From contig PS015014.1 of the NCBI GenBank assembly GCA_048213135.1, positions 184,973 to 212,740 on the forward strand: DNA of 27,768 bases. The letters run 5' to 3'. The position numbers and the translations under genes are program-made. Positions 1 to 26,300 of this stretch are shown here, one piece after another (the stretch's first letter is position 1; every line of letters starts with the position of its first letter). A model generated the notes under the pieces. That model was not told where the DNA came from, made no database searches, and saw nothing but the letters and a program-made list of their open reading frames with translations. This DNA is from Reclinomonas americana ATCC 50394 (Eukaryota).

Positions 1-996
1 CCGCCGCTGCCGCTGCCGCTGCTGCGGGTTACACCGACTTGCCTCTGACCAACATGCGCAAGGTGATTGCCGACCGCCTGGTCCAGTCCAAGCAACAGAT
101 TCCGCACTACTACTTGACCGTGAGCTGCAACGTCGACTCTCTGTTGAAGTTTCGTCAATCGCTTCCCGTCTCTCGCACAATGTGACTCTCTGACGAACAG
201 TTTTTCTCATCATGCTCAGGCTGCGCGCGGAGCTGAACGCTGCCGGTGGTGAGGACTACAAGTTGTCGGTCAACGACTTTATTGTGAAGGCTGCTGCCTT
301 GGCGTGCCGCAAGGTGCCGGCAGTGAATTCATCGTGGCTCGGCAACGCCATTCGTCAGTACGACTACGTGGACGTGAGCGTTGCTGTCAGCACACCCAGT
401 GGACTGATTACGCCCATTCTGAAGGACGCCGACCGCAAGGTAGTTCTTCTCCCGCTGCTTCTCGTCGTCTCCGTTCTAGTATCCCACTCGGCAACTGTAG
501 GGCCTGGCCACCTTGTCGAACGAGATGAAGGTGCTGGCAGAAAAGGCGCGCAACAACAAGCTGACACCACCAGAGTTCCAGGTCTGTTGAATATTTTGCA
601 TTGTGCATTATGCCTGTGTCGTCTCATCGTCTATGCCTTTATGCAGGGTGGCACATTCACGATCAGCAACCTCGGCATGTTTGGCATCAAGCAGTTCACC
701 GCCGTGATCAATCCGCCGCAGTCGTGCATTCTGGCGGTTGGTGGAAGCGAGAAGACAGTGGTGGTGAACCCGAAGGCCAAGTTGCGTGACACACAGAATG
801 CCGTGTCGGGTGAGTGTTGAATCCCTGGCGGCTCATCGCCCGTGGCCACAGGGATGGTGAGAGCCCCTACACGACGGCGACGTTGATGAACGTGACGCTC
901 TCTTGCGATCACCGTGTTGTGGATGGTGCTGTCGGCGCACAGTGGCTGCAGCACTTCAAGTCCTACGTGGAGGATCCACTCAAGATGCTCTTGTAG
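1..996 (+). CDS. DLAT: Dihydrolipoamide acetyltransferase (pyruvate dehydrogenase E2), 3' part; introns 149-219, 440-500, 582-646, 810-851
   Basis: Spliced translation gives [52 protein letters not shown] and the catalytic DHRVVDGA motif. It ends EDPLKMLL* at 996. Confidence 0.96.
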
Positions 997-1108
997 GCGC
1001 CTGGTGCCCACCGCTGCATATATGCTGTGGTTTCTGTTGACCGATTGGGTGGACCGAGAATACAGCGGCAAAGTGTTGAATTTACATCAGCGCATCGACG
1101 CGCTCTAC

Positions 1109-4100
1109 TTAGGAACTGCCACTTCTTACGGCGGCAAGGCTCATTGCCACCGCCTGTTGCTCCAACTCGCTCTCCGAGTGCACCAACACATCGTCTTCTG
1201 CGTCCACTTGTCCGTCGCCGGTCACGCCTGTCACAATCAAACGGTTAAGCAGATGCACACGCGACACACACCGCGCAAATGCTGACTGGGCTGGTACCTT
1301 GCGCTTCCTCCTGCTCGTTGCGCATGTACACCAAGAACGAGGCCGCTGGTCGGTTGCGTCCAGTTGACTCCTGTCGCATGAACCGCTCGGTGGCCTGCAT
1401 GCAAACGTGAGGAACGAGGGGGTTGCTGACTGCATTCTCCATTGCACTCAACTCGCTGGCCATCTGCGCCATCCAGAGTGATCCATGTGTTGTCGCGTGT
1501 GTCGAGCGCAAACGTACACTGGCCGACCACCAAGCGCAACGAGTACTCGTCGCCGAGGATGGTCGAAAAGACACTGTCCAACTGTGCCATGAGCTCCGCC
1601 TTTTCCGCGTCGCACTCTGCACACGCGTACAAGTGAGAACAACGCCACTCTCTGCTTGAGGCAACCAACCGCAGGCCACCACGCAACCTGTAATTCGCTG
1701 CCGCACGGTCTCGAGTTCGCAGTCCACCAGCTGGGCAGTCACTTGCAGGTCAGCGTTGCGTCGGAAGCCGCCACTTCTGCAGTACTCCTTCACTCCCTCC
1801 AAGAAGACTTGACGCTGGAACAACCGACTGGAAGCGGGAAGGCCACTATGCAAAGTCTGCAGAGAGCAGCGTGAGCGACACGCTGATGAAACACGACAGT
1901 CGTTTCCTTTCAAACCTTGCACGCCCGCGGCAAGCGCAGTAGTCGCTCCTTGCGATCCTCGCACGCTTGTATCCTACTGTAGATGGAGACAGCCTCCAGG
2001 AAGCATGCCTCCACATCACCCACAGCGTCGGCCGTGTAGCGGCGCATGTGAAGCAGCTGCTCAAACGCAAACTCGCGGATGGCTTCACCCTTGCCACACT
2101 GCCGATCGATCATCAGTCAGTCAGTCAGTCAGGCAACTCAGGTCCCCTTCGTGAAACATACATTCCGACACTGCGACTCACATGCAACGAGACCACCAGC
2201 ATCGGCGGCAGTCTCGTGATGGCGCGCGAGCCGATCGGCATCGGCGACGGTGAGCCCGTGTGATCCATGGTCAACGGCAACAACTGGCGATCGAGCGCAG
2301 CCTGCACGCAAGCACAGTTCTTCACGTCGACGCCCAACTGTGCAAGAGTCTGTGCCAGGCAATCCAGCATTGGTCAGAGTCAGCGCGTGACAACGGCCAA
2401 CACAGCCTGCTCGCTCACTCACCGTGGACTCGCCGGTGTCGAGTTGCGTTGACCGAATGCTGAGAGCACTGGGGAAAACAGACAAACATCTGTGAGCAAT
2501 CGAACCAAGCAGACATGGACACAAGCACACGGCGCGTACTCTTCCACTGCCGCCGCCACCGGCACGCTGCTGCACTGTTGCAGAGTGTGCAACACAACCT
2601 CGTACAAACGCTCCCACACAAGCGCCACGTCTGACAGGCAAGCGCAGAACGTGAGAGACCACATGGAGAACTGCAGAACGAGTCACAAAGAGACAACACA
2701 CCAGATTGCCGCTCTGCTGCGATCCGGCTCACGGTGATGAAGCTGTCCAACAGCGCCTCGCTTGTAAGCTCCACGACCTCGCCGGTACACATCAGATTAG
2801 CAAACAGATTCTGCACGAGAAGCACAACTGCAACACCCCCAGCTCAGCACAGCGACACTGTTCACCGCACAACACAACAACGCACACTCAATGCCCTGGA
2901 AATCGCGAAGCACAGCGTTGCTGTCGGCACGCTCGTCGACAGCCTTCACGGGGTCTGCAGATGCCACAAAGACGCAGTGAGTAATGCGCGCAGGAGTCAG
3001 TGCATGGACACACCGCAGTCGCCGCACCACGAATGTGCAGCGGGGTCGATGTCACCGGACGTGCCGGCACAAAAGCAAAAATGGCACGTCGCATCGGCAG
3101 AATCCAGAATGCCATCAACAAGCACGCATTCAGTGCCGCATGTCCTCTCTTGGTCGGTTGCGACACGAGATGATGCAGAGTGGAGGGATAGTATTGCTGG
3201 GTGGCGTCGGAGTCCAGAGAGAAATTCTCCAGTACGCTCGCTGGGCAACAGATGCAACTAGTAAGTTAGGCAGTTGATACCAGAGCGCAAAGTACTCGGT
3301 TTTTCTCACACCATCCACACAGCGCATCAGCTCCTCGGATCCACGGGCCTCCGCAATGACTGACAGACAGATCAACAGGCGTTCGGCCTGATCCGGGAAG
3401 AGCGACAGTCTGTTTTCCCCCCCCAAGAACGCAATAGATGTAAGTCAACTGCATTAAAGGTCAACAACACGAAATGTCTCTTCACTTCATACCGATTACG
3501 TGTCGCCAGCAGCACCGCAGTGTCGCTGCTGGACGGCAGCGCACCGAGGATTGTGAAAGCAGTTTCCACTTCCGGCACATCGTCCACCTCTGCAATTCAC
3601 ATGCATGCATTCAGCACCGTGACATGGGCAGCAGATGGACATGACACGACAGCAAACCTTCCACCACAGCGGCGACATCTGCACTCAACCCCAGCATGCG
3701 TCTGAGGTGCGAGACGAGCCGTTCGGGGCGCGTCGGCGATTTGACCGAGGTGACAGCATGCTGGAAGCGGAGCGGTGGTGCGCGCCCGTTGATAACATCT
3801 GCGGTAGATCAGTAAAGGAAGTATCACCTCGCCACAAAGAAATCACACACACCTTGCTGGCGATGCAAGCCACACATTTCGCCAAGCACCGAGTCTGTTT
3901 TTGGTCCACCGTCGACAGCAGACTCGGCTGTATCCACTGCATGGATACGATTGCGCAGCAGTTCTTCCGCGAAAGCGTGCAAATCGGACGAATCTGTGCC
4001 CAAGCACGCCGACAGTCACACAGACGGCGGGAGACGCCACCGCATGCGAGGTTCATGGTATACTTACAATACTCCTGGAACTTGAGGTGGCACGCGGTGG

Positions 4101-5400
4101 TGATTGCGAAAAACTCGTCAATAACACGACGAACAAGTCCGTCGGGGCGACCAACGGTTTCGGGCTTCCCGTCAGAGGTGTCTTTCGGGAGGTTGTAGCC
4201 GTACCCGCCTCCGGGTTGATCCACACGTCGGAAGCCAGCAATCTGCAACGATATGCGCGGACGGAGTCAGAATCGTGCTGTGTGCTCCAGCTGAAGGCAG
4301 ACGGGGGAACCTCCAGAGTTCGGGGAAAATACGGAAGCGATCGCAAGAGCGGCGACGACGAGGGGATCCAGCGAGCGCTGCATTCAGGTTTCAGCACGCA
4401 GCAGCGGTAGCAGCACGCGCGCTACGACACGCAACGAATCGTCTTCGGGGTCATCGAGAATCTTGTTGAACACTTGGTGCACCGCTTGCGACAGGCGGAT
4501 CAGCGTCTGCACAGCCAAAAAGTAGTGTTCAGTGCGCAGGCGGCGGGGGAAGAGTCGACACCGAGTCGCGACTCACATCGTAGTTGCCATCCTCACTCAG
4601 CGCACGGAACACACGCGCCAGCAGCGCATCCCTCAACTGCACATGCAGCTCCACCAGCGAATGCTGGCATCGGAACAGGCGTCGATTCGCTGTGCCGTAG
4701 TGCTCCAGCCGTCGCCACGCAAAGCCCTACAAAGAGCAACCCGTGAGCAGTCCCTACCACCCTCACGCTTACCCACACCACGCACCGTATTCGCCGGCAA
4801 CTCCACCGTCACATCTTGCGGAACTCGCAACTGCAGTACAGAGTGATGACTTGCGGCACACAGTCACAGAGAGAGAGAGAGAGAGAGAGAGACGCACAAA
4901 CCTCCACAGTCATCTGGGTGAGTTGCATCACACTGACAAACGCGTGCAGAGTCACTGCGTACTCTCGATTGTAGGGCACGGACGACTCGGGCAAATAGTC
5001 GACCATGATCGTCTGATGATGAAGATGAAGAAGTTGTCAGATGTCCACACTCACGCACACACAATGCCACCCACTCACCTGTGTGGATGAGTAACCCTCG
5101 AGAGGGCTCACACGAAGGAACGACACACTCGGGTCTGTGGAGAAGGCCGTGGACTGCATGCAAATGTGTGAGATGAGTGGCGTGTGTGCGTGAGAGGAGA
5201 GAGACGAGTGTAGAGAGGGATGTTTGGAGACCAGGTGATCAAAGAGACGCTCCGGCGAGTAGTTGAGCATGGAGGCTGCGCGGAATGCAGGTTTTACATA
5301 AGCAAGACCTGCCAAGTGTGCCGAGTGCGACACCGACGTGAAGAGACTCACGATCCATGCGGAGGAGGCCCGCAAGCAGATCCATTCTTGAGAGATCCAT
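1109..5400 (-). CDS. USP25/USP28/Ubp2-like ubiquitin-specific protease-fold protein, probably catalytically inactive, with an N-terminal PUB-like segment; multi-exon, internal exons partly unresolved
   Basis: USP boxes appear in the expected order: RGHAALNACLLMAFWILPMRRAIFAF (Cys-box position), LVQNLFANLM, DVALVWERLYEVV, ITRLPPMLVVSL, IREFAFEQLLHMRRY, a coiled-coil insertion, EYSLRLVVG, WITLDG and ASFLVYMR. The tail is UIM-like (SESELEQQAVAMSL). Probable ATG at 5400 (MDLSRMDLL). Treating the whole span as one gene is an inference. Confidence 0.65.
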
Positions 5401-5571
5401 AACTGCTGCTGCTGCTGCTCACTCACTCACTCAATCGTGACAAGGTTTGTGTGTGTAGTGTTTTATAAATTCGTGGTGACTCAAACAAATTTTCGACGAC
5501 GCCTGCTTCCTCCCTCTCTCCCTCTCTCTGTTGCACTCGCGCGCGCCCGCACGCAGTCTCGCTGCCACTCA

Positions 5572-7548
5572 TCAACGACGGCGACGATGACGGTCGGGCG
5601 ATCGGGAACCCGAGGCGGAGCGCGAACGCGNNNNNNNNNNNNNNNNNNNNAGAGGGAGAGGGAGAGGGAGAGGGAGAGGGAGAGGGAGAGGGAGAGGGAG
5701 AGGGAGAGGGAGAGAGAAAGGACGGGAGCAACAAAGGTCACACAAGCATGAGTGAAAAACCGCGATGGAGCGGGGAAGCGAGATGAGAGGAAGGAGAAGG
5801 AGGAATGAGACAGAGACTTGCAGACCCCGGCGACGCACCTCTGTCTTGCCACCCTCGGTGCCCGAGAAGCCCTTGTCGGGTCGGAAACGCTCAGTCTTGG
5901 TGAGCGAATCCATCAGCTGATCACCGCCACCGTACACCTCCGTGTCCACTGCCTTGGGCCTGTACAATTGATTGGCACTGCTGCCACTGAAGAGCGGCTT
6001 GTCGTACACGGCATACGCTGTTCATACAGTGAGCTGCCGGTAGCGACGTGTGTGTGTGCGTAAACAAAAGACGCAACAATCGTCGGCGGCGAATCCCGAT
6101 GTCAGACCCTGACTCGCATTAAACAGACGCTGATCGTACATGAGCTCCTTGGAGGGCGCGGAAGGTCCCTGACCGAGGGCCACTCGCTCACTGATATCAC
6201 GCTCCTCCTCACGCTTCTTCAGTCCACCCGAGGCGCGCAGCGATTCTTTGCGATGTTCACGCTCGCGCTGCTTGCGACGCATCTCACGCAGCTCCTCACG
6301 CTCACGCAGATCTTCATCCGCCTCCGGACTGGTGCAACAGTGTGAGAAGAAGAGGGGAGGGGGAGAGGGGTGGGGAGTTGAACAACGCAACTGGCTCTTC
6401 AGCGATTCGTTCATGCCCGCCACACCGGAGCGCTCCTGACGTGCCAGTCGCGCCTTCTCGCGCAGCTCCTCCTCCTGTTTTGTCCGTTCCTTCTCCTTCA
6501 TCTTGATAATGATCTTGTTGCGCTGCTCAAGCTCCTCGCGTGCCGTCTGGTCGGCCACATACAGGGCCGATGATAGCTTGGCGAACTTGTTGCTGATGGT
6601 GACCTCCTGTGTGCCACGTCCATCGGCCGCCAGACGCTTGTCGAGAGAAATCGTGTAGCCGCGAGGATTCTTCCAGTTGGAGACGCACGGTGGAATGGTC
6701 CAATCCTGCACCTCCTGCGCCGTCGGCTTGCGCGGTGGCGAGTGCATCACCGGCACCGGCGGCGAGCCAGCCCCTGCACGCGAAGATAAATGTTGAGTGC
6801 ATCATCATCACCACTATGTGTGACGCAAAAAATGGAAGAATAGTCAGTCACCTCGCGGGACCTTGACGTGCTTGAACTTTGGCGGCTCCAGTGGATCCGT
6901 GGGCGCCGTCACTGAAGGGTGACGGAGCGGCAAGTGAGCTCACACGAGTGAACCCGTTCCCGCACATCCCAGCGACCAAGCAATGCGAATCACGAAACTC
7001 ATACGAATGATGCGCTGCTGGGCGCCCGAGTTGTGCGCCGCATTCTGCGTGGCTGGCGTGTACCGAATGTACTGCGGCTCCTCCTGCTGCGTGCCCACCT
7101 GCGGCCGTGCGGCCTTGGCCCGCGCATTCATCTTCTCCTCCAGCGCCTTGCGTGTCCTCTCCGCAATCTCCTTCTCCGCCTCCGTATCCGGTCGAGCCAG
7201 TTCATCCTCACCGAACTGCGGAGAGAAGAGGGCAAGAGTGTGAGTGCGGCTCTCTTACACGGCAGTCTTGTCTCTGACATTGGGTGTGCAGAAGTTCTTT
7301 GCTTTTCTCTCGCTCTTTCTATCAATATACCTCTCCCTCACTCACCACACACAGAGACACACCTTCTTCCTCACTTTCTCTCTCTACTCTCTCTCCCTGC
7401 GCACCACGACACTCACCTCCTTCTCATCCAGATCGGCGCGCGTCGAAAAGATCTTCTTGTCCTTGCGCTGCCCCTGCTTCACAATGGCATCAAACTGCAG
7501 GCGTCCATCCGAGTCTGTCTTGAGCGCCACCACCTTGCCCGCGGTCTT
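5572..7548 (-). CDS. SNW1: SNW domain splicing factor SKIP/Prp45, exon 2 onward; part of the C-terminus lies in the gap at 5631-5650
   Basis: QYIRYTP, QRIIRM..DPLEPPKFK, PPVPVMHSPPRK, IPPCVSNWKNPRGYTISLDKRLAADGRG, RDISERVALG, YDQRLFN and RFRPDKGFSG are present. An RS-rich tail ends at the stop at 5572. Confidence 0.95.
5651..5712. repeat. (AGAGGG)n hexamer microsatellite in a SNW1 intron, next to an assembly gap
   Basis: About 10 tandem copies are directly visible. Confidence 0.9.
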
Positions 7549-7938
7549 CTGCTCGTGGATGCACGAAAGAGGGAGTGAGGGGGAGGGAGGGGAGAGGGAG
7601 GGGAGGGAGAAGGATGGGGAGGGGAAAAGGGAAGAGTGGAGAGAAGACGGAGAGGAGACGCAGACAGAGAATGGAGGATCGGAGAGTGAGAGCAGGGACA
7701 ACAGAAGAGCGGGGACACAGAGACACGCAAACACAGAGACAGGGCGACAGAGAGAGAGAGAGAGAGAGAGAGGAGGAGGGGGGCAACACATACATGAGAG
7801 ACAAGAGATGCAGAACCAGAGAGATAGAGAAAGACAGCAGGAGAGAAAGCAGGGGCAAGGGACGAGTAAGAAGAGAGAACGGGGGAAGACACACACACAG
7901 ATACACACGAACAGAGTGNNNNNNNNNNNNNNNNNNNN

Positions 7939-8187
7939 GTGAGTAGCCTGCTTCCGTCTCCGCGCAACGCGGCAGGGAGCAAGGACAGTGCGTTCTTTGG
8001 TGCGCAAGTCAAGGGCGCGGGGGCGGAGCGCGAGGCTGCATCGCGCGCTCTGGCCAAGCGCTTCCAGGCGCCGCCGTACAAGCATCGTGAGAGCTTTGTG
8101 CCGCGACGAGTCGAGGACTTTGCCGATGGAGGCGCCTTTCCAGAGATCCACGTCGCGCAGTATCCGCTGGATATGGGTCGCAAGGAT
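7939..8187 (+). CDS. SNW1: SNW1 N-terminal exon, on the opposite strand to the rest of the gene and inside a gap-flanked segment
   Basis: SSLLPSP...APPYKHRESFVPRRVEDFADGGAFPEIHVAQYPLDMGRKD is the conserved SKIP N-terminus. The donor at 8188 is phase 0, matching the minus-strand acceptor at 7549. Confidence 0.9.
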
Positions 8188-8220
8188 GTTGAGTTGTGGG
8201 GCGTGGTGGGGTGGGTGGGT

Positions 8221-8381
8221 CACTTGTCTCTCTTGTCCTTTGCTCGCTCTCTCTCTCTCTCTGTGTGTGTGTGTCTCCTCTCTCTCGCTCTCTCCCCTCG
8301 TCTTCTGCTTCTGCTTTCTCTTCCCTTGTCGCTCTCTATCTCTTTCTCGCCCTCAATCCTGTTCATCACTTGTCTTGCTCT

Positions 8382-8436
<55 letters not shown>

Positions 8437-8451
8437 TGTCGTTCTCTCTCT
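8221..8451. repeat. CT/GT-rich low-complexity intronic tract next to the long N gap
   Basis: (CT)n and (GT)n runs are directly visible. Confidence 0.85.
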
Positions 8452-8881
8452 NNNNNNNNNNNNNNNNNNNNNNNNNNNNNNNNNNNNNNNNNNNNNNNNN
8501 NNNNNNNNNNNNNNNNNNNNNNNNNNNNNNNNNNNNNNNNNNNNNNNNNNNNNNNNNNNNNNNNNNNNNNNNNNNNNNNNNNNNNNNNNNNNNNNNNNNN
8601 NNNNNNNNNNNNNNNNNNNNNNNNNNNNNNNNNNNNNNNNNNNAAACAGAGAGAGAGAGAGTGAGTGGTCAAAGTGTCAAGCGTGGAATGGCCCGCACTT
8701 TCGACACGCACGCGCGCGCGTTTCTTTTGCATTGTGTGTGCGTGCGCGCGTGCATGTCAGTGCATAAACGTGTGCGCGTACCTGGCAAGCGAGGTCATTT
8801 GGGCCAACGCGCGCGCACGACTGTGGCGATGAAGTTGAGTGAATGATGGATCAATCGACTTCACGCACTTCTCTACTCACA

Positions 8882-9927: not shown

Positions 9928-11321
9928 ATGCAGCTGTTAGCCTTTGCGCGCTCCGTGCGCCCTCTGCTCGCTTGCCGGCATCATCGTTGCGCACGTTCTC
10001 TGCAGCAGTCAGTGCACGAGCAAGACTGATTCTCATCGTTATTGATTCCCCACGTCAGCAGCATTGCTGCGTCAGTGCACGACTGCCGCGTTCTCGACCT
10101 CTTCTCCTGCCCAGTCATCGGTTCCATCATCCTCGCCGCAGCCACCCGGTGTGTATGCTCCTGTGCATGCATGTGGATTCCGACTGTTGTCTGACGGAAT
10201 CTCCCTGCTCCTTCCTCCCCACAGTGAATGCACCGCAACAACAACAACAACAGGACAAGCGTGGGAGTGGCAAAGAGGGAGGCGGTAGTGGTGGTGGAGC
10301 TCGGCCCAACGAGACCAAGCGATCGATCTTTGGCTGGGAGCTTCTGATTGCTGTGCCAGTGGCGATGTTCTTCTCCTTTGTCGGTGTTCCTCGTTGCGTG
10401 CTGTGTCGTGCCGTCGCGCCGTTGATCCGCGCGGCCGTATGTCGCTGATCGTGCCGTCGTACGTTGTTTTGCAGCTCTGTACTACGGGTGAGTCTGCCAT
10501 CCATGTCTTCTTGATACTCTCTGCGCTGTTTCACGTGTGTGCGCGTGTGTGTGTATAGTGTCAAGAGCTCCAGCTGGCCCACAGCCGAGGGTGTCATTGT
10601 CAAGTCGGATATCTTTGAGCAGTCCCGCAAATCGGTCGTGTTCTCCGGTAAGTAGTGCAGGTGGAGGTAGCGCATCGTGTGATCACTACTGTATTTTTGA
10701 CCGCGGTGTGCAGGCACGGACTATTTGCCCGATATCAAGTACCGTTTCCGAGTGCCTGGCGAGACGGCCGATCGCGAGGGATTCATTGTGTCGTTCCGTT
10801 ACTGGGGTGCGCCGCCGGCCCGGCCCGAGGCCGAGTCTCTGCTGGCGCTGTACCCCGTCGGTTCCAAGGTGTTTGAACTCGTTCACGCCGCCATGGTCCG
10901 CTAGCGCTCACTCACTCCTTGCTGCGACATGTGCAGGTCACTGTGCACTATGACCCGTCGCAACCAGGTGTGCTCACGCTCTCTCTCGTCATCTTGCTTC
11001 GAGGGCGTTCCCTGTTTGTTGGTTTGTTGGTTGACGATGCATGTATGTATGTGGCGGCAGAACGCGCGGTGTTGATTCCTGAGATCGGTTGCATCGGTCT
11101 GAGTGCGGCGTTCTCCAGCGCTGCTGTTCTCGCGTTCGGCTTCCGTGTGGGTCCTGCGCGTGGTATTGTTGCGTGTGAGCGTGCATGTGCATTTTGCACT
11201 CGATCACTGTGTTTCTCAACCATCGGCAACACAGTTCACCAGTGCCGTGCTCATCCTCATGGGCTGGCTTGCGCAGTACGGCTGTCAGAACGCCAACAGA
11301 GAGAAACCAGTGGGTGCTTAG
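9928..11321 (+). CDS. DUF3592-like membrane protein with a predicted mitochondrial presequence; about 9 exons
   Basis: Presequence-like MQLLAFARSVRPLLACRHHPALLRQCTTAAFSTSS, then a TM segment (WELLIAVPVAMFFSFVG). This is followed by SSSWPTAEGVIVKS...YLPDIKYRFRV...LALYPVGSKVTVHYDPSQPERAVL and a C-terminal hydrophobic helix. Confidence 0.75.
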
Positions 11322-15032: not shown

Positions 15033-17100
15033 TCAGTCGTGCCCGGCGATCTTCACGACTCGTGCCTGTAGCCGCTGGCTGCCTGTACGTGCCTTGTTCA
15101 TGGTCTTCTCCAGCTCGGACTCGCCGTCCCTCGAGGCGTTCGGACTGCGGGGCGGTCAGCAGGATCAACAACAGCGACGACGACGACCACCATCAACCCA
15201 CGCACCGATGGCGAATCTTTGGTCGCTCCTCGTCGTTGGCGTCGTACGTGCGCAAGTTGCTCGGCAGATCGAGCACCAGTCGCGTCCACTTTTCTTTGAT
15301 CCGCTCCGCCGTACGCTTGTTGGCCTCCGTCTCGCGCGGGTGACGCGAGTACAGATTCACCAGCACACCGATGCGCGAGTCCTTCAAAAAGTCGTCGCGA
15401 ATGCCCATGGAATCGCCCTGATCACCCGGCCGTTGTTCAGTGTCGTCGCCCTCGCACGGCAAGTCAAGCAGGATGCGCAGAATGCAGGTGCGCAGGCTGA
15501 GCGGCGGCAGCGACTTGTCCTTGGCGTTCGGCTTTAGCCAGTCGAACAGCGCCGACAGTAGTGCGTTCTGCAGCAGCGGTCCGACGAAACGCGGACTGTG
15601 GACAAGAGTGAGTGCATAAATACGTGAAGGAAAATGCACACATGCAGAGAGAGGCGAGCATGCACTCAACTTGCGGACGTACTGCTCCAACTTTGACAGC
15701 AGTCGCTCCTTGTGAATTGCTGGCTTGCCCTCTGCATTCAGGCGCTCGTCGGTCTGCTGCGCCACTTGCATCTCCTTGATGAAACGAGAGGCCTATGGCA
15801 GGGGTGAGACATCAATGATTGCGCATCTCACATCGCGCTCGCACATACCGCCTGCACGTAGGACTCGCGTTTGGGGGCCAGATCGGTGACTCGCCGCTTG
15901 ATGTACGCCGTCACCTCGTCCTCCTCCTTCTTCTCTGTGGGCACACATACTCGCGTGAGGCCATATGCCTGCGGTGTGAGAGAGGCACACGCGTGCACTC
16001 TGACGCACTCTGTGACTTCTCCACCGGCTGCTCCGCAATCGCACTGTCAATGTTGATGCGCTTTCGCCGCCGGCCGACACCCTTCTCTTGTTCGTCGTCG
16101 CCACTCTCCTCCTCGCCAATCTCATCGTCGTCCTCGTCCTCGTCGCCAGACTTCTTTCGCCGGCGCCGCTTGCCTTGCGTCTCTCGCTCCTCGTCCATTT
16201 CGGCATCCATCGCAGTCTGCTCGGCCTCCATCGCCACACGCTGCACAGCGACACTGTGAGTCTTCCTCACACACGCACACACGCACACACGCGCACATCA
16301 GCAACAGTCATTGCACCTCCTGCACGAATCGCTCGACGGCCTTCTTGAACAGCGACTTGTACTCGTGCTTGATCTTGTGCTTGAGGTGTTTCAAGTGGCT
16401 AATCACCATGTCGCGCACCGTCGACCGATTCACCGTCGTCAAATCCTCCAGCTCATACACCACCTCGCGAGTGACCTCTTCGATCTGTCGCTTGTCGAGC
16501 TCCTCGTCGTTCTCCTCCTCCTGCAGAGCCGCCGGCCGCTCCGCCTTGCCCTGCTTCTTCAGCTTCTTCAACTTTTTCAGCTTCGACGACAGACTCTCGT
16601 CGTCGCCATCTCCCTCGCCCTCCTCGTCCTCTCCATCGCCATCACCACTCTGGCACACCGTTCAGCAAGGACGACATACAGAGAGAGAGAGAGAGCATGC
16701 AACTCACCTTTTGTCGTTTCCTCGGTGGCTCATCATCGTCGTCGCCAAACAACTCGTCATCGTCGTCGCCCTCGCCCTCGTCGCTCTTCTTTGCGCCCTT
16801 GCTCAACTTGCGCCTCTTTTCCTGTGTTTTTTCACCTTCTCCACTGCCACTGTCATCGTCATCGCTGTCGGCAGCAGCCTTGGATCGCTTTCTCAGCTGC
16901 ACTCACACATACACATACTCATCGTGAGCAGTGTGGTGTGTGTATGCATGTGTGTGTGCGTGTGCGTGTCTTGCTCACCAGTCGCTTCTTCTTCTCCTTG
17001 GGTGCATCGTCGTCCTCTTCTTCATCCTCCTCCTCCTCGTCTTCTCCACTGGCCACTTTGAAATCGCCATCGGCCTCCTCATCTTCATCGTCATGCTCGC
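15033..17100 (-). CDS. IWS1: Transcription elongation factor IWS1/Spn1; start codon probably in the gap at 17179-17198
   Basis: Long acidic N-terminal region, then DERLNAEGKPAIHK, LFDWLKP..DKSLPPLSLRTCILRILLDLP and LKDSRIGVLVNLYSRHPRETEANKRTAERIKEKWTR (TFIIS-N/IWS1 domain). Confidence 0.9.
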
Positions 17101-17198
17101 CTGCAAGCATGCACACACACGTACGCACATGTGAGAACAAAGCACAGCGTCCACTGCTGTGTGTGTGCGTGAGAAAGTNNNNNNNNNNNNNNNNNNNN

Positions 17199-19813
17199 AG
17201 ACGAGAAACAGCCAACACCCCACCACGGGACGCAACTCGGCGTTGGCCTGCTGGATCTCCTGCAAGTCGGCGAGCACCTCGGCCTCGCGTTCAGCATACA
17301 GACGGTTCTTCTTGTCTTGGATCTGCTGTTGTAGCTGCTTGCGATGGTAGGCGCGGTGCGAGTGGGCGTCGTCCGGAGCAGGCGGCTCCACTGGGAACGC
17401 GGTGATATCGCGGTCCAAGTCGATGGCGTGCGGTGCCCGTTGCACTTGCACCGACGCCAATCGCTGTCCCTCCCGCTCGCGCATCTGCGCCTGCAGGAAG
17501 CGTCGGTGGTCGTCCTGGACTTTGCGACGCGACTCGCGATTCGCAGCATCCACACGACGGGTGATTTCCAGCTGCGATTGCTCCTGTTGACGCACGTGCA
17601 CAAGTTAGCAAGGGTCGTCACTGCCGAGCCGGTGACATGCAGAGTGACTTGCCTGTTTCATGTAGTAGTCGTCTTCCTGGAACTCCTTCGCCAGTGTGTC
17701 CTCGTACCGCTTGAACGCCTCCTCCATGGCAGCATCTGTGGGACGTCAAAAAGAAGAGAAAGTCAGACGGGTGGCCACGAAACACAGGAGAACACGAGAC
17801 GAGACGCAACGCATCGCGGTACTGCTGACACCTCGGCCAATGCTGTTCTTCATGGCCATGGACGGCAAGTTGGCCGCCAGAGTGTACGACGCACCGCCGA
17901 CGGAGCCAGACGACGAGCGATTCGAGTGGGGAGAGGCCAGGCCGGGCCGACCGGGGGCGGTGACTGCGCGAGGAATGTCCAGTGATCCGACACGCGTCGC
18001 ACCGTGCGGCGGCGTCATCGGGGCCAACTGCGGACTCGATTGCCGCACAGCCGAGGCGCCATTCTGCGCATCATCACACGCAGACCGAAAAATAGTGAGC
18101 AACGACAACTCTGTGTTGTGGCCACACACAATCAAAAACGAGCAATGCGCACTCTTCTGTCCACCCAGTCCTTGCCGTGCTTGGCCAGCAGATCTCTCTC
18201 CAGCTGCTCAAACTCGCTGTCGAGCTGCCGTCGTCTTCTCTCCTGTGCTTCGGCCTTGCTCAATGCCACCGGACTGTACTCTTGCACCTGTGACCACACG
18301 AAATGAGCGACACGATCACGAGGCTGCGTGTAACCACCGCGCAAACACACACCTGATGCATCAACTCGCCACGCGAGGTCTCGGTCAGATCGCGAGCGCG
18401 ACGATCCAGCTCCTCCTCGTCCGTGTATGGCCAGTGGTCGTGCTTCTCGTGTCGCTTCTCGGCGTCGCGGCGAGCGGCAGCCTCGCGCTTCTGGTGCACC
18501 ACATGCTGATTGTAGCTCAAGTCCTGCTGCGACACATTGGCGGCCTCCAGTCGCTTCCGCCTTTCGTAGTCGAGGGCGGCCAACACACTGCGCTGCGTCG
18601 ACTCGTGCTCCGCTCTCTTGTCGCCATCGTCACGGTGGCCGGGGCGGGCATCCTCGCGTGCGACCAGCGACTGCGATAGCAGCGACGAGCGCTTTGTCGG
18701 ACTGCCGGGAGTGCCAAGTCGCGGCGGACCACCACGCGTTCTCGGTCGTGGCGACGTTTCACCGCCGTTGCTTGCTGCTGCTGCTGCTGCTGATGGGGCA
18801 GATGCAGACGCACTGTTTCCATTCGAAGCTCCAGCCGCCTTGGGAGACTCGATCGTGGCGTGATCGCCGTGCACGGTGAGCACATTGAGTGCGCCGGAAC
18901 CGTTGCCTCCCTCATTGAGTTGCACGTGCTGGCGGCGACCGTGCGCAGGCGAGGCACGTGGAGGCGACACTCTCGATGGCGACACGTTGCCGCCACCACC
19001 GCCACCGGCCAGTCGACCGCTGCGTGAGGGTGGCGGTTGCATGATTTGACCATTGCCGGCGCCCGGCGGGAGCGACAGCGTGGCGATCGGAGTCATGGTG
19101 GAGGCGCCGGTGCTTCCGCTGGCGCCCCCCGAAGCCACTTGCGGTGTCGTCAGGGCGTCCCGGTTGAACTCGTCGGTGTATGTGGTGCTCGGTACGAACT
19201 CCACAATCGCATGCTCGCCCTTGATGGAGCCCATGCCGCCGAGATCGATATTGATCTTCTTCCCGGACGACAGCACCTGCACAAAAAAAAACACGAACAC
19301 ACGGTTGTGTGAGCGGCGTTGGGGAGGGCAGAGACGGGTGCGGACCACTGACCTCGCCCAATCGCTGCACAAACTGTCGCAACGCGGCCACAATCGTGTC
19401 CTTCTTGATCTGACTCTGCTGCGAAATCGCAAACGTGTTCACCTCGGCCATCGGCATCTCATTCGTCACGTGTGGCCTGTTGTGCAACCGCAGCGCATGC
19501 GCCTGCGCAAAGGCCTCGCTGATCACAAACAGCGGATTGCGCTTCGTGGTCTCGCCGGCCACGTTGCGAACGCGCTGCACGACAAACTTGCCCATGCCCG
19601 GCAAGATCACGCCCTGTGTCGCGTGATAAGCACATCGCGCCCTCCCCGCTCATCATCACCAAATCACACGCCCCGCACCTTTTGCAGCGCCAGTTGCCGC
19701 TTGACAAACGCAAAGGTGGCCTCGAAGACGCTGCGATATGTGTTCTCGTCGATCTTCATGAGACGCGACCGAGCCGCACACTCGCGCATGAGATCGTCCA
19801 TGGAGTACGCCAT
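17199..19813 (-). CDS. CCDC81: CCDC81-like protein (two N-terminal HU-like domains, low-complexity linker, coiled coil); 3' end runs toward the gap
   Basis: VFEATFAFVKRQLALQKGVILPGMGKF...NPLFVISEAFAQAHAL and EVNTFAISQQ...FVQRLGEVLSSGKKINIDLGGMGSI match the eukaryotic HU-CCDC81 domains. Q/R/E-rich coiled coil follows. Confidence 0.8.
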
Positions 19814-20262
19814 GATGGATGAGCAAGAAGAGTCTGTGCCACAGAGAGATGAGAGAGACGATGATGGTTGGTGGTTTCCGAGATCCATCGGCTCCCACAA
19901 TGCATTCCCGTCATATCTTCATCACCACCCACTCTGTGCACCTCCACACACACTGTCTTCCACACAAGCACATATACACACACACGCGAACCTTACACGA
20001 AGAGCGATTGTCGTTGGTCAGTGTGTGTGTGTGTGGTGCTGGCGGCAATTTCTCCGTTTGGCGTTCACACGCGCTTGCCCTCGTGTGGCGCTGCTGTGGC
20101 TGTGCTAGGCGACACTGATACGGTCGGATCCACCAAGGCAGGTGAACACACAGCCGGGATGTTTGCGTGGCGCGCAAGAGTGTGATTGATTGCGAGAGTC
20201 GCGGTGGGACAAAGTGTTAAACGGCATCGTGTTGTGCGGACGTTCACTCCCAAGTGCTTCTC

Positions 20263-21786
20263 TCACGGATCGGCATCGAGACGTGCTACCATGTCTGTCT
20301 GCGCGACGCGCTGGTATGGGTGAGCCAGCGTCATGGCCACGTTGTGATACACCTGTATACATTGGACTGGTTAGCATCTGTCACGATTGCTGTATGCAAG
20401 CAGCCTCGTGCACACACACCTGGTGGTTGAGGCGACTGTGGTAGGCGAAAGCGGTGCCCGCGTTGCGGATTCGTGTCAGTGTCTGCACGAGAACGGTGAA
20501 GACTTGCTGCTTCAGAGCCTTTTTCTGCCGCGTGCAAAATACGGAGAATATTAGCGCGGATGATTGGAGCACACACACACACACAAGAAGAAGCTCGCCT
20601 CTTCCCATCCCGGTTCCTCCGGATCTGTGCGCTCACTGTGCCATCAACACGTGGTGTGAGTGACCGTCCTTCCTACGATATGCCAAAACTCCTGCTTTGC
20701 GCGCACCACAAGAACACGGTATCCATGTAGAAGTTCTCGTCGTTGACCACCCGTTCGACTGCACGCATGGCCGACGGCGTCTCGCTAAACGTGGGCACGA
20801 CATTGGAGCGGCCGTAGATGACCACAGCGCGCAGAATGAACTTGCCAATCTCTTCACCACGCGGCAAGTACGGCTCACTGCCACGAAAGACAAATCAGCG
20901 GGCGTGGCGAAGATGTGGCGACTCCCAGCGCTGCACTGCCCGATCGCACCATGACTCAAACACACTCGACATGTCAAAGGAGGTGTAGACGGAGCCGGGT
21001 CGGAAGTCGCCCAGCTTGCGCACCGCTGTAAACTCGCTGTATGTGAATGGTTGCACCTGGAAGAGGAGTGCATGAATAGGGGGGAAGGCGCAAGGTGAGA
21101 GAGGGCGCAAGGTGTAGGCCACCACGCACCAGTGTCGCTCGCTCACGCATGGTGGCCAGCGCGTACTCGTGCTTGTTCGACAGTCGGGCCTTGGCGTGAA
21201 TGAACGACTTGATGGCGTTCTTGACCACATCCAAGCGCGTCTCGTAACGACCGCGCATGTGCATCCTATGTTAGACACACACACACGCGTGAGTGAACAA
21301 GGCGAGTGAGTGCACAACAGCCGGGCGACAAGACACAACTCTTCGCCAGTGTAATCAAAATTCCTGCGCACACACACACGAGACAACAATCAGCGCGCGC
21401 GCGTCGGAGAAAACACACCCTAGCAGATAACAGCAACGCACATCATCTCGTCACCGAGATCAATGAAGAACATCTGTCGAGTGTGTGAGCTCGCAAGTCA
21501 TCACCGCCATGTGCACTCTCGCTCACACAGACGCAACAATCTTCTCTGGGCAGCTCTTGGGCAACTCCAGCCGCTCGGGCATTGGCGGCGGCACTGGTGC
21601 CACTGATGCAGCGGCAGCAGCTGACTCCTCCTCAGCAGGTAATGCAGCAGCAGAGGGTGCTTCCTCATGTGGCTCCGCGTGAGGAGGCTCGCTGTGTGTG
21701 GCTGCGTCGGCGGCCGGCGACGCCGCCGAGAAGCTCGTGTAGGCGTCTTCGGCCGCGCGGCGTGGAGAGGTTCGCGGGGAACTCAT
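20263..21786 (-). CDS. BABAM1: BRISC and BRCA1-A complex member 1 (MERIT40/NBA1), vWA-like
   Basis: CPEKIMFFIDLGDEM, RLDVVKNAIKSFIHAK..LSNKHEYAL, FDMSSVF, ILRAVVIYGRS, FYMDTVFL and the terminal MTLAHPYQR (human LLAHPLQR). Confidence 0.9.
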
Positions 21787-21908
21787 TCACTGTGTGTGTT
21801 TGTGAGTGGCTGTTGTCCGACGCGACGCGGACAGGGAAGATTTCGTTTCTCATTTGTGTTTTTTTCATTGTTAGTACTCTTGGTTCTCCACCTGGCCGGC
21901 TGCCACGA

Positions 21909-23267
21909 TTACGCCTCTGTGTCTTGCGAAAAGTAGTCGTCGTCGAAGTGGTGCACGCGGATCACACCTTCCTCGCCACCGCTGACAAACCTGCGTAAGG
22001 AACAACACAAAATGAGTAATCATCATCACGACTTCACCCTTCCATCCACAACGCACCCTCTGCCGTCTGGTGCAAACTGCAGCGTGTTGACGGGTCCAAA
22101 GTGACCGGCCACGGCGCCCAGCTCCATGCCGTAGTACTTGTGGAAGAACTTGGTTTCGAACTTGCCGGCACGACCCGCTGTTGTTGTCACATCGCGAGCT
22201 TGCTGACCACCACCCAGAATCACGTGGTCGCGGATCGGACTGCGCACACGCCACAAGCTAAGCACAAGATCAGCGCAGCGCACCATCACCTTGTCACATC
22301 CAAACCTAATGTCCACATCGTTGACAATCGTGTCGCTCTCGTAGGCTTTCGCACACTCGCCGCTCCGCATGTCCCACATCTTCGCCGAGTGATCCGCAGA
22401 CGCCGACAACACGCAGTGGCCGTTGTAGGCTGTCCTGATGTGGTTCACCGTGCCGTCGTGTGCGTCGATCTTGAGAATTAGCCTGCCCGTCTCCGTATCC
22501 CACTGTCGCACCGTCTTGTCTTCCGAGCACGAAATCACCGTGGCGTTCAGCGGACCCCACTTGCAGTCGGTGATGCGCTTGTCGTGGCCGAGAATCTTCA
22601 TCTTCGGTTGCGTCGTCTGCTCCCGCGGGTCAAACGACTTGCTGGTCATCAGGTCCTCGGCCACATCGTACAGATTGATGGCCGGCTGGTAGCCGAAAGT
22701 GGAATCGGTGCACGACAAGAACTGTCGCTCACCCAGTGCCAGCGACACCGCACGGACCTGGCGACTCGTGTGTGAGTCTCTGCGCTGGCGGAAAGCAGTA
22801 AAGAACAACGCAACGGCAGTCGGATGCTCAATGGACCACAGCAGAGTGCCAGATTGCACATCCCAAATGCGCACATTCTCGTCACCACCTGCGCTAATCA
22901 GGCGCGTCGAGTCGCGTGAGACGTCCACTTGCCACACCACACCATTGTGGCCCTGTGCAGAGTGTGAGCAAGAGAGCAAGAGAGGAAGAGAGAGCTCAGA
23001 AAAGAGACCTTGAAAATGCCCATTCGCTCGCCATTATCCGTGCGCCACATGGTGATCATCTTGTCCTTGGAGGCGGTGAACAGCAGATCGCCGTCGTGGT
23101 TGTAGCGCACGCACTGTGCAGTGCAGCTTCAGTGAGACATGTCGGCACATGCACACACGCACACACGAACACACGCACACACGCACACACACAACGAGCG
23201 CGTGTCTGTCAAGCAGTGCACTCACCGTGATAGGGCGCTCATGGCCCGTCAACATAATAGGCCGCAT
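21909..23267 (-). CDS. EIF3I: Eukaryotic translation initiation factor 3 subunit I (WD40)
   Basis: MRPIMLTGHERPIT, YNHDGDLLFTASKD, DHVILGGGQQARDVTTT..GKFETKFFH, GHFGPVNTL and SGGEEGVIRVHHFD. Confidence 0.97.
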
Positions 23268-23384
23268 GGTTGCGTGTGATTGACGTGTGATTGAAGTGAT
23301 TGAGAGTAGGACAGAGTAATGCAGCGAGCACTGTCCATTTACTTCGTGTTTGTGTGTGCGCGCGTGTGTGTTGGCCTTGCCCTC
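23268..23384. promoter_or_regulatory. Very short divergent (bidirectional) promoter region between EIF3I and SRPRA
   Basis: Only 117 bp separate the two head-to-head ATGs. It contains three GTGATTGA copies at about 23276-23303. Confidence 0.6.
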
Positions 23385-26300
23385 ATGCTTGATCAGTTTG
23401 TGATTTGCACACGTGGCGGCCTGGTGCTGTTCCACTGGGAACCTCGCGGCGCGCTTCCTGTGCCCGGTCGTCCCATCAACACGCTCATGTCCGCACTTCT
23501 CGAGGCATGTTCCTCCGCCCTGCCTTGCTCTCTCTCTCTGTTGCTCTCTGTCGCGCGCGCGCTCTCTCTCTTTGTGTTTGAATGTCTCTCAGTTGGATTG
23601 GCCACCAACGTCTCAAATTGGTTGTTTCTCTTTTGTGCGCGCGCGTCACACAGGGTCGCAGTGGCAGTGTGGAGACGGAGACGCACGCGGTGAAGCATTT
23701 GGTGGTCAACGAGCACAGCATCATTCTTGCAGTTGCGTTGTTGAATGCGATCACGCCACGCCACACGCAATGCGCGCCGAATCACTGACGCCGAATCCCT
23801 CAGGCGGTGTTTAGCAAGAAGCGACCGCTGCCGTACATAGACCTGCTGTTGCGACAGGAGCGCGATGCGTTTGTGAAGGAGTTTGGTGCGGCTGCGTTGC
23901 GGCAGCCGGCGCTGCATCGGTTTGAGGAGTTTGTCGGGCGCTTTGACGCGGTGCTGGCCGACGTTGAAACCGATCACTTTTCGCGACGTGGTGCTGGGCG
24001 CAAGATGGTGACCTCGGCCGGCAGCGATGGCGACGATGATGAGGCGGAGAATAGCGATGGAGAGGTGTCGTCGCATGCGGTGCGAGGCAAGAACGGCACC
24101 ACCACCACCACCACCACCACCACCACGACGGTCACGGCGTCGGAGGAGGACGAGTCGTCGGGACCGCACACCCCGCAGGCGGATCGCTTCTTGCGCGTGG
24201 GCAACGATCTCGGCCGCTCCTCGTCCGATCCCATGAGCTTGTCGCCCGACGGTTCTCCGTCGGCCGCCAGCGATGGTTCCGGTGTGCAGAGTGACCAGGG
24301 ATCGCCGTCGTCGGCGGGCGACGCTGCTCGCAGGGCACTAGGCAAGCTGCTGCCCAGAGGAGTTGGTGAGTTCTCTTTGTTGTCGTTGTTGTGTAGATTG
24401 TCGCTGACTGGCTCGTGGTCAGGCGCCAAGGCTCCTCGTCGCACTGGTTTGGTGGCCAAGGCGGTCAAGAAGCCAGCCGAGTTGCGTGCTTGTGATTGTG
24501 TGCACGAGTATGTGTGCATGTGCTCACGATGGTGTTGTTGTTGTTGCTGCTGCCGTGATCGACAGGCCACCAAAACCAAAGGGCAAGCAGAAGACGAACT
24601 GGGACGATCTGATGCCCGACGACGGAACACGCGCTGTAACCGAGGATCGCATTCGCGCTCACGACCGATCGGCGGTGCTTACAGAGGAGGAGAGGCGAGA
24701 GGCCGAGGAACGCGAGGTGACGGAGACACGTCGTCGCTTCCTGAGGAGCCCCAGCAGTGGTAACGATGGTGGTGGTGCCAGTGGATCGGGATCCAGCAGC
24801 TCCGCCCCTGCCGACAATCCGCGCACCAGTGGAGGCTTGCTGTCGTACTTTAGTCGGCTGGTGGGTGGTGCACCGCTGACGGAGGAAACCCTGGCGCCGG
24901 CCCTGGAAAAGGTCAAGGACAAGCTGATGACGAAGAATGTGGCCGCCGGTATTGCCGACGAGCTGTGTGCCGGAATTCAGCAAGAGTTGCTCGGCAAGAG
25001 CCTCGGCACTTTTAATAGTTGCGTGGGGGAAGGAGGAAATAGGAAAGGGGAGGGCGAAGAGAAGAAAGATGAGGAGGAGGAGTGTCACAATTGCTGATCG
25101 AAGGGCGCACTCTGCAGCTGTGGCGTCGTCCGTGTCCAAGGCGCTGGAGGATTCACTGCGTCGTATTCTGACACCGAAGCAAAATATCGACGTGTTGCGC
25201 GAGGTGACGCGTGCGCGGGAGGAGGAAAATCGACCGTACACGATTGTGTTTGTGGGTGTGAATGGTGTGGGCAAGAGCACGTCGTTGGCCAAGGTGTGTG
25301 TGTGTGAAAGAGAGACAAGGGAAGGGAAGGGAGTATGAGTGCGCAGCTTACGGTCTTTTTTCCAGGTGTGCTACTGGCTGCTTCAGCAACGCAAGCAAGT
25401 GATGATCACGGCGTGCGACACATTCCGTTCGGGTGCCGTGGAACAGCTGCGTACTCATGCGCGTGCCTTGGACGTGGAGCTGTTTGAGCGTGGCTACGGC
25501 AAGGATCCGGCCGCCATTGCGCAGGAGGGCATTCGATATGGTGCGTGGTAGGGGAAGGAAGGAGAGATGGGGAGGGAGGAAGGAGGGAGGATGCCAAGGA
25601 AGAGAGAGGAAAGGAAGGTGACAAGCAGAACGTGACAGAGGCAGAGAGGGGAAGGAAGGAGAGAAAGAGAGGGAAGAAAGTGAGGAGAGAGAAAGAGAGA
25701 GGGTGAGTGAGTGAATGAGTAGAGAGAAGGAGAGGAAGAAAGCGACAAGAGAGAGAGAGGAAGGAAGGAAGGAAGGAGAGATACGGAGGAAGTAAAGAAA
25801 GGATAGGGAACGAGAAGGAAGAGTGGGCGAGGGCCACAGAGAAAAAGATAGAAAGAGACTGAGGAAGTGTGAGAAAAGGGAGCGGAAATAAATAAGTATG
25901 GAAGCGACTCACAGAGAAAGATAGAGACGGAGGCGGGGGGGGAGTGAGAGACGGAGGCGGGGGGAGTGAGAGAAAGGCAGAGTGAGTGTCCGTGTATTCT
26001 AACTGCCTCCCTCTCCTACTTGCACAGGCAAGGACAACGGCAAGGATGTGGTGCTGATCGACACAGCCGGACGCATGCAAGACAACATGCCGCTGATGGA
26101 GGCACTGGCCAAATTGATCCACTTCAATTCTCCCGACTTGATTCTCTTTGTCGGCGAGGCACTGGTCGGCAACGACGCCGTGGATCAGCTGACGAAATTT
26201 AACCAGGCTCTGCAGGACCTGACCCCGGCCGGTCGACCATCGCGTCTCATCGATGGTATTGTGCTCACCAAATACGACACTGTCGACGACAAGGTTCGAT

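Follow-up and report, generated by a model that had tools for sequence, protein, structure and literature searches.

A 27,768-base stretch of the genome of Reclinomonas americana ATCC 50394 (assembly GCA_048213135.1, contig PS015014.1, positions 184,973 to 212,740; hereafter the window) very probably contains a second class of 5' splice sites (donors) of the form GTT-NN-GT, which we refer to as GTT donors. An earlier note on this DNA had placed intron starts at 19 such motifs, and all 19 are present at the coordinates and on the strands to which they had been assigned, with G at +6 throughout and T at +7 in all but one; the junctions of seven of them are fixed by protein homology. The introns concerned appear to be genuine U2-type GT-AG introns that use a second, abundant 5' splice site with the consensus A/GUUGCGU (here and below, a slash in a sequence marks the cut or junction), and the reading that we tentatively favour is that the standard machinery recognises this site in a shifted register.

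The window has a G+C content of 57% and five runs of N, and many short introns in densely packed genes are found across it. Among the genes that could be named are the C-terminal part of DLAT (Pfam PF00198), SNW1/SKIP, IWS1, eIF3 subunit I (eIF3i) and the SRP receptor alpha subunit (SR-alpha), as well as one CCDC81-like and one DUF3592-like gene. No Rfam family matched the window at its gathering score. The evidence comprises the window sequence, homologous proteins and statistics. Exons and introns were parsed with a self-trained periodic coding model combined with an intron length prior and an acceptor matrix. One form of the parser, the flat parse, gave every GT the same score and hence favoured no donor motif; the other, the class-aware parse, knew the GTT donor class and is biased towards it. 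Continuity across junctions was assessed either by exon-by-exon matching or by scoring alternative junctions against profiles of fetched homologues (95 for SNW1, 42 for SR-alpha and 25 for eIF3i), with every GT or GC donor and every AG acceptor that keeps the frame and lies within 60 bases of the junction taken as a candidate.

The claim that several GTT donors sit at junctions fixed by homology holds for the following seven of the 19 sites (lengths in nucleotides, nt), and the remaining 12 junctions are not fixed in this way.

149 to 219, plus strand: DLAT intron of 71 nt, donor gaa/GTTTCGT, chosen by the flat parse
6018 to 6077, minus strand: SNW1 intron of 60 nt, donor att/GTTGCGT
6912 to 6998, minus strand: SNW1 intron of 87 nt, donor tga/GTTTCGT
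15596 to 15670, minus strand: IWS1 intron of 75 nt, donor caa/GTTGAGT, chosen by the flat parse
22758 to 22814, minus strand: eIF3i intron of 57 nt, in frame, donor gcc/GTTGCGT
23732 to 23803, plus strand: SR-alpha intron of 72 nt, donor gca/GTTGCGT
25018 to 25117, plus strand: SR-alpha intron of 100 nt, donor ata/GTTGCGT

Profile and structure-chain alignments confirm the junctions that had been proposed in eIF3i, SNW1 and DLAT. Excision of exactly 19 codons at 22814 brings eIF3i to a single offset against human eIF3i (6zvj_I) from W79-D80 to V96-R97, with A95 matched. This donor ranks first among 41 candidates, 5.0 bits above a GC start at +3 and 8.4 bits above the next GT, and retention of the stretch scores 18.8 bits below splicing. 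At 6077, the upstream SNW1 exon aligns with PDB chain 8xi2_R up to residue 538, the serine encoded by the split codon, and the downstream exon continues from residue 539 with tyrosine on tyrosine; the donor is the best of 30 candidates, with GC at +3 trailing by 5.2 bits and the next GT by 7.0. The other SNW1 junction, at 6998, leads 46 candidates by 7.3 bits, in agreement with the Pfam family SKIP_SNW, of which positions 1-23 precede the intron and positions 46-158 follow the next exon. Around the DLAT donor at 149, the preceding exon matches positions 3-42 of PF00198 and the following exon positions 44-119, so that the split codon corresponds to position 43. For IWS1, upstream residues 3-35 match residues 9-41 of PDB chain 9eh1_O and downstream residues 8-54 match residues 55-100; extended to the exon ends, these matches reach 46 and 48 on either side of the split codon at 47. 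The upstream IWS1 match is weak alone (E 1.2), yet it is the sole match and falls on the right protein. The SR-alpha donor at 23732 is the first of 56 candidates by 4.4 bits, and the tblastn match begins at 23804, with AVF on AVF. In the same gene, tblastn puts the end of residue 362 of homologue P0160 at 25016 and residue 363 after the intron that starts at 25018, and residue 372 of homologue P0141 is the threonine of the split codon; of 50 candidates this donor scores highest, with GC at +3 lying 3.8 bits and the next GT 19 bits below it. The donors at 22814 and 23732 had been misplaced by the flat parse before homology assigned these junctions to GTT.

Architecture was compared between the 17 GTT introns with a placed acceptor and 22 ordinary GTNNGT introns. 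GT is present at 19 of 19 sites, and each of the 17 introns whose acceptor was placed finishes in AG. Median lengths are 72 nt for GTT introns (range 57 to 100 nt) and 71 nt for ordinary ones. All 17 GTT introns and 16 of the 22 ordinary ones have a CTNAY motif 5-40 nt upstream of the 3' end, which takes the forms CTCAC, CTGAC, CTGAT and CTCAT in the GTT introns. In their interiors, GTT introns resemble one another no more than they resemble ordinary introns (mean normalised global alignment score -0.24 for pairs of GTT introns, -0.21 for pairs of ordinary introns and -0.22 for mixed pairs), and the copies show no similarity beyond the donor. Three GTT introns have GTTGCGTTGTT in common.

On the exon side, the two kinds of donor differ. 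G occupies -1 in only 1 of 19 GTT donors, compared with 17 of 22 ordinary donors (Fisher 4e-6) or, when ordinary donors are restricted to those of the flat parse, 13 of 17 (1.5e-5); among homology-fixed junctions the counts are 0 of 7 and 9 of 9 (9e-5). A is found at -1 in nine of the 19 GTT donors, against four predicted by background (binomial 0.01), and C in six. Within the intron, C at +5 (15 of 19) is more frequent than at the matching ordinary position (9 of 22; Fisher 0.025), and 11 of the 19 donors are exactly GTTGCGT. The earlier description of the class as an ordinary donor with an inserted T is therefore apt for the intron letters and fails on the exon side, where the -1 G is missing. 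Since either a sequencing artefact or a recent insertion of T into ordinary donors would keep that G, its absence argues against both, and it points to a shifted register rather than to a simple bulge.

The motif itself is enriched. GTTGCGT occurs 22 times on the two strands of the window, against 7.05 ± 2.66 in 100 dinucleotide-preserving shuffles, none of which reached 22. Observed and expected counts under a first-order Markov model were 22 and 6.6 for GTTGCGT, 2 and 1.9 for GTAGCGT, 10 and 8.5 for GTCGCGT, and 10 and 6.6 for GTGGCGT; an extra base after GT is thus enriched only when it is T, and other places of insertion in GTGCGT show no enrichment. Expressed as fold enrichment, the values are 3.3 for GTTGCGT, 1.6 for GTTGAGT and 1.7 for both GTGCGT and GTGAGT. 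All 16 GTTNNGT heptamers together are only in slight excess in the window (62 against 50.4 expected), and this excess is carried mainly by GTTGCGT. The flat parse returned 59 introns, of which 7 begin with GTTNNGT (all at sites of the earlier note), 17 with GTNNGT and 35 otherwise. Given that GTTNNGT makes up 1.7% of the GT dinucleotides in the window, 7 of 59 corresponds to a binomial P of 6e-5, and this share is a lower bound, since a parser this crude misplaced many of the remaining 35 donors. As a control, albeit a weak one given that the loci are shorter than the window, we examined metagenomic SNW1 loci: no GTTNNGT heptamer occurred more than five times in the top 12, ranked by GTTNNGT excess, of 38 loci of at least 5 kb.

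The abundance of the class can be gauged best in SNW1, SR-alpha, eIF3i and DLAT, the four genes that were assessed junction by junction. Homology fixes 15 of their 21 junctions, and six of these 15 are GTTNNGT:

SNW1: GTT at 6998 and 6077; GTGACT at 6851
SR-alpha: GTT at 23732 and 25018; GTGTGT at 25294; GTGCGT at 25541; GTTCGA at 26294
eIF3i: GTT at 22814; GTGAGT at 23225; GTCTCT at 23008; GTGCGT at 22056
DLAT: GTT at 149; GTAGTT at 440; GTCTGT at 582 (profile continuity 119/120 and 146/147)

Four of the six unfixed junctions in these genes are also GTT candidates (8188, 6391, 24481 and 781). The class-aware parse, with its bias towards the class, assigned 14 of 70 short introns to it. The figure of roughly a fifth of introns put forward in the earlier note is therefore a fair one, and the share in conserved genes may be higher. 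Together with the seven homology-fixed junctions, these counts support, within the window, the claim that donors with G at +6 and T at +7 are used routinely. The fixed donors at 23008 (minus strand), 6851 (minus), 440 (plus) and 26294 (plus) lack the usual pair of G at +5 and T at +6, and all of them follow exonic AG, as if they formed a third kind of donor that is weighted towards the exon.

Beyond the seven fixed junctions, five of the sites are supported without being fixed (1452, 1687, 6391, 8188 and 24481), five show intron-like architecture only (10393, 13153, 17810, 21339 and 21537), and two (4435 and 9986) are doubtful. The ten sites that are neither fixed nor doubtful, together with one further candidate from DLAT, are as follows.

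781 to 851, plus strand: probable last DLAT intron of 71 nt, donor caa/GTTGCGT, CTCAT 16 nt before CAG
1395 to 1452, minus strand: intron of 58 nt in an unnamed gene, donor cga/GTTGAGT, chosen by the flat parse, CTCAC 13 nt before the 3' end
1617 to 1687, minus strand: intron of 71 nt in the same unnamed gene, donor cag/GTTGCGT, chosen by the flat parse, CTCAC 17 nt before the 3' end
6329 to 6391, minus strand: SNW1 intron of 63 nt, in frame and stop-free, donor cca/GTTGCGT, chosen by the flat parse
8188 to 8194, plus strand: donor gat/GTTGAGT of the first coding exon of SNW1, acceptor at 7549 or 7552 on the minus strand
10393 to 10474, plus strand: intron of 82 nt in the DUF3592-like gene, donor ctc/GTTGCGT, class-aware parse only, CTGAT 26 nt before the 3' end
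13082 to 13153, minus strand: intron of 72 nt, in frame and stop-free, donor ctc/GTTACGT, read by eye, CTCAC 13 nt before the 3' end
17736 to 17810, minus strand: intron of 75 nt, donor tgc/GTTGCGT, class-aware parse only, CTGAC 27 nt before the 3' end
21266 to 21339, minus strand: intron of 74 nt in a putative BABAM1 gene, donor aga/GTTGTGT, class-aware parse, branch-like motifs present
21474 to 21537, minus strand: intron of 64 nt in the putative BABAM1 gene, donor att/GTTGCGT, class-aware parse, CTCAC 12 nt before the 3' end
24481 to 24565, plus strand: SR-alpha intron of 85 nt, donor cga/GTTGCGT, chosen by the flat parse

The donor at 8188 ranks first, although by only 1.4 to 4 bits over GTGGTGG at 8203. 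Its gene is split between strands: the first coding exon of SNW1 lies at 7951-8187 on the plus strand and the remainder between 7548 and about 5650 on the minus strand, and tblastn places SNW1 residues from about 10 to 90 at 7951-8196 (plus) and the following residues from 7554 downwards (minus). Given these opposed exon strands, the scaffold piece 7939-8451, which lies between the N runs 7919-7938 and 8452-8643, is inverted, and since it carries the first coding exon of SNW1, the donor at 8188 on the plus strand belongs to that gene. The SNW1 site at 6391 falls in a proline-rich, unconserved stretch in which candidates score within 2 bits of each other and the profile puts retention 15 bits higher, a preference that we attribute to the proline-rich character of plant SKIP proteins at this place; the donor, the CTCAC 14 nt before CAG and the length nevertheless speak for a candidate intron. 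The stop-free, in-frame stretches 6329-6391 and 13082-13153 could also be retained or alternatively spliced, and their retention would add 21 and 24 residues, respectively, leaving the protein unbroken. At 24481, an unconserved SR-alpha linker, the candidate junctions are likewise within 2 bits. The flat parse is the evidence for 1452 and 1687, for which there are no usable homologues; 1687 is also the sole GTT site with G at -1. In place of the donor at 10393, the flat parse took GTGTTCC at 10384, and in place of that at 17810 it took GTACCGC at 17822, with the acceptor unchanged.

Two of these introns lie in a gene on the minus strand at 20676-21600 for which the earlier note had proposed BABAM1, citing PEKI/MFFIDL as a junction fixed by homology. 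This match and the identity of the gene are putative: neither Pfam, PDB, a protein atlas nor a set of 1.84 billion representative proteins recognised the gene as BABAM1. Its 67-residue exon gave a single match, of no use, among the 1.84 billion representatives; in Pfam there was only a weak match to VWA_2 (E 0.14); and in PDB the 45-residue exon had no match and a 25-residue stretch matched an unrelated chain. Two sites of the earlier note fared worse. The GTTGCGT at 4429 to 4435 on the minus strand is doubtful as a donor, since of the two frame paths that continue downstream its phase leads into the worse one (about -16.6 log-odds units over two exons, compared with -2.8 for the other); the coding model was unable to separate the two frames from one exon alone. 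The GTTGCGC at 9986 to 9992 on the plus strand is without support: no more than 15 codons of the frame upstream are open, with a negative coding score, and several readings are possible. Conversely, the GTTGCGT at 781 is absent from the earlier list. It would join the exon matching positions 147-188 of PF00198 to that matching positions 193-232 in frame and is the likeliest start of the last DLAT intron, although it is only one of 29 in-frame solutions with a GT or GC start and an AG end. GTTGCGT at 17236 on the minus strand and at 23269 on the plus strand were also considered as further donors and dropped, as no frame-consistent solution was found for either.

For the reading of GTT donors in a shifted register, we infer both the pairing register and the use of standard small nuclear RNAs (snRNAs). 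The conserved G and U at +6 and +7 would lie one base deeper than in AG/GUGCGU or AG/GUGAGU, and the first intron G would take the place opposite the U1 snRNA 5' end that usually belongs to the last exon G. U+2 would be left unpaired or bulged, U+3 to U+7 would pair like the normal +2 to +6, and the cut would still fall at the sole GU, fixed later by U6, U5 and Prp8; proteins would help the weak recognition by standard U1. A/GUUGCGU aligns with AG/GUGCGU letter for letter, except that U replaces the first intron G, and a shifted register thus predicts the pattern seen at -1. RNAduplex, run against the standard U1 5' end (ACUUACCUG, as printed in PMC4856993), returns the shifted pairing for GUUGAGU with A at -1 (1452 and 15670), with U10 opposite -1, C9 opposite +1 and A7 to A3 opposite +3 to +7, and it predicts the register in part for 8188.

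Several observations weigh against this shifted register on standard snRNAs. The 19 GTT donors have a mean RNAduplex energy of -1.8 kcal/mol, compared with -7.65 for 17 ordinary donors, and for most GUUGCGU sites RNAduplex finds fragments and no coherent register, since C at +5 is a second mismatch to standard U1. This mismatched C nonetheless predominates (15 of 19), although the preference could be partly a matter of ascertainment if GTTGCGT was noticed more readily than its variants. C is also more frequent than G at -1 (6 against 1 of 19), which pairing with U10 alone does not predict. Finally, the basis is the sequence of one 27.8-kb window, with 12 of the 19 sites not fixed by homology and two of them doubtful. 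Given the weak pairing with standard U1 and the strong preference for C at +5, a variant U1 stays a live alternative among the causes proposed in the earlier note, which were variant U1 or U6 snRNAs and altered donor-recognition proteins. The same junctions would then be read by a dedicated variant U1, or by a U1 with a non-textbook 5' end such as 5'-ACGCAAC(U)-3', and two parallel U1-type recognition systems would feed one major spliceosome. Such an end would pair perfectly with the class, and A at -1 would pair with U10. The tight consensus (11 of 19 exactly GTTGCGT and C at +5 in 15 of 19) and the very weak predicted pairing to standard U1 agree with it, as does the 3.3-fold enrichment of GTTGCGT against 1.6-fold for GTTGAGT, although A at +5 pairs better with standard U1. 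However, the minor forms GTTGAGT, GTTTCGT, GTTGTGT and GTTACGT mirror the spread of the ordinary donors as if one RNA read them all, a GC-rich mutation bias could favour GCG in the motif with no pairing partner, and the 5' end of U1 hardly varies among eukaryotes as far as is known. On balance, we lean without great confidence towards a shifted register on standard snRNAs and consider a variant U1 possible but rather unlikely. Its specific form, in which a second U1-type snRNA complementary to (A)GUUGCGU commits a fifth to two fifths of the introns, cut one base upstream of the usual register, is slightly more doubtful still.

The other explanations question the junctions or their origin. If most of the sites were not donors, with other nearby GTs used or in-frame stretches kept, the excess of the motif would need another cause. 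The flat parse did take other donors at 10393, 17810, 22814 and 23732, three sites (6391, 13153 and 22814) lie in stretches that are in frame and stop-free, the SNW1 profile prefers retention at 6391, and there is a phase conflict at 4435. Against this, seven junctions are fixed by homology, the flat-parse alternatives at 22814 and 23732 score 9.0 and 5.0 bits lower, retention at 22814 is penalised by the 18.8 bits given above, and a branch motif and a YAG acceptor lie at the usual distance in 17 of 17 introns; we regard this explanation as improbable. Reading the sites as GC-AG introns that start three bases later (GTT/GCGT), with GTT exonic and one extra residue in the protein, is very unlikely. 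GC at +3 is indeed the runner-up at the four GTTGCGT junctions tested, and GC-AG introns probably exist in the window, but the GC start is lower at all four (by 5.2, 4.4, 3.8 and 5.0 bits, 18.4 in sum), and the alignments of eIF3i, SNW1 and SR-alpha are gapless with the GT start. It would also require GTT to be kept at exon ends in all three codon phases, and it is inapplicable to GTTGAGT, GTTTCGT and GTTACGT, including the homology-fixed 149, 6998 and 15670. The probable GC-AG intron is the first of SR-alpha (23505-23653, plus strand; start codon at 23385), whose donor is most likely gag/GCATGT, although homology cannot separate it from two neighbouring GC starts.

It is just as improbable that the class consists of recently spread, introner-like elements that owe their GTTGCGT start to common descent. 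A tight donor consensus and the presence of GTTGCGTTGTT in three introns would fit such an origin; however, intron interiors show no greater similarity within the class than across classes, and the introns, at 57 to 100 nt, are too short for the parts of a transposon. Least credible of all is a sequencing or assembly artefact that added a spurious T to a TT run at ordinary donors. An extra base that repeats the T before it would fit, as would a scaffold with gaps and one inverted piece, but ordinary donors have G at -1 in 17 of 22 cases and the GTT donors in 1 of 19. Random homopolymer errors would moreover have disrupted reading frames within exons, and those of DLAT, SNW1, eIF3i, SR-alpha and IWS1 run through cleanly.

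Minor, U12-type introns have their own 5' splice-site consensus, which is read by U11, and so provide a precedent for a dedicated snRNA and, like the GTT class, for a second tight donor class beside the ordinary one in the same genes. Nevertheless, neither the U12-type start RTATCCTT nor the branch site TCCTTAAC was found among the 19 GTT sites, and the branch motifs of GTT introns are CTNAY, as in the ordinary introns of the window. Closer parallels come from human U2-type introns, in which Roca and Krainer reportedly described shifted-register 5' splice sites in 2009. For human U1, experiments have established both shifted registers and registers with a bulge at +2/+3 (Tan et al. 2016, PMC4856993). 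Among 201,541 human 5' splice sites, that paper counts 68 predicted bulge +2/+3 sites, or 54 after curation, and all validated non-canonical registers amount to 1.5% (PMC4856993). By these figures, the comparison with a rare human class drawn in the earlier note was right in kind. Human shifted-register sites resemble the GTT class in having GU at the cut, G and U at +6 and +7 and no G at -1, and the model shifted-register oligonucleotide in Table 2 of that paper, ACA/GUCAAGUAUA, has A at -1. They differ in that they are rare, while GTT donors account for 7 of 59 flat-parse introns and six of the 15 fixed junctions in four genes, and in that the GTT consensus GUUGCGU adds a mismatch to standard U1 at +5; moreover, the role of U1 in the window is presumed. 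The human bulge +2/+3 register likewise consists of ordinary donor letters plus one U, with the bulged U at +2 or +3, but it keeps a G at -1 useful, and the GTT donors avoid this G (1 of 19).

Two classes of 5' splice site defined by LUC7 proteins are described in animals and plants (PMC11842720). These classes carry their match on either the exon or the intron side, which recalls the lack of an exon-side match in the GTT class and the AG that precedes the donors without G at +5 in the window; unlike GTT donors, they share one register without an extra base. A link between the GTT class and LUC7 proteins would be a guess. The literature on the motif, on bulged U1 pairing and on shifted registers, covered in part, comprised work on humans and one tunicate study and no lineage with routine use. 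By this survey, the register is already known, and the scale, the consensus of its own and the rule at -1 would be new.

The best relatives of eIF3i reach 41% identity, and a metagenome scan that yielded 80 SNW1 loci gave at best 65% identity in the most conserved exon; given these low values, the lineage seems poorly sampled. The commonest heptamers of the whole window come from GT/CA (100 occurrences) and GA/TC (85) dinucleotide repeats, which are often intronic. One exon at 19353-19613 on the minus strand matches both eukaryotic HU domains of CCDC81 (E 6e-5 and 3e-4) and presumably belongs to a CCDC81-type protein linked to cilia or centrosomes. In SR-alpha, the linker from the N-terminal domain to the GTPase part encodes a run of 11 threonines at 24100-24140 (plus strand), as well as extended acidic and serine-rich segments.

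It has long been asked which base pairs set the start of an intron, and in humans, where shifted and bulged registers are rare exceptions, they have to be studied minigene by minigene. In practice, GTT junctions will be misplaced by gene finders that score six intron bases in a single register; the flat parse itself misplaced those at 22814 and 23732. If the class is what it appears to be, a genome with a large share of shifted-register donors would be a natural experiment on the slack that U1, U6 and Prp8 allow between pairing and cut, and it would show whether snRNA variants can split the work. Should a second U1-type snRNA prove responsible, it would add to U1 and U11 a third mode of intron-start definition that has not been seen before.

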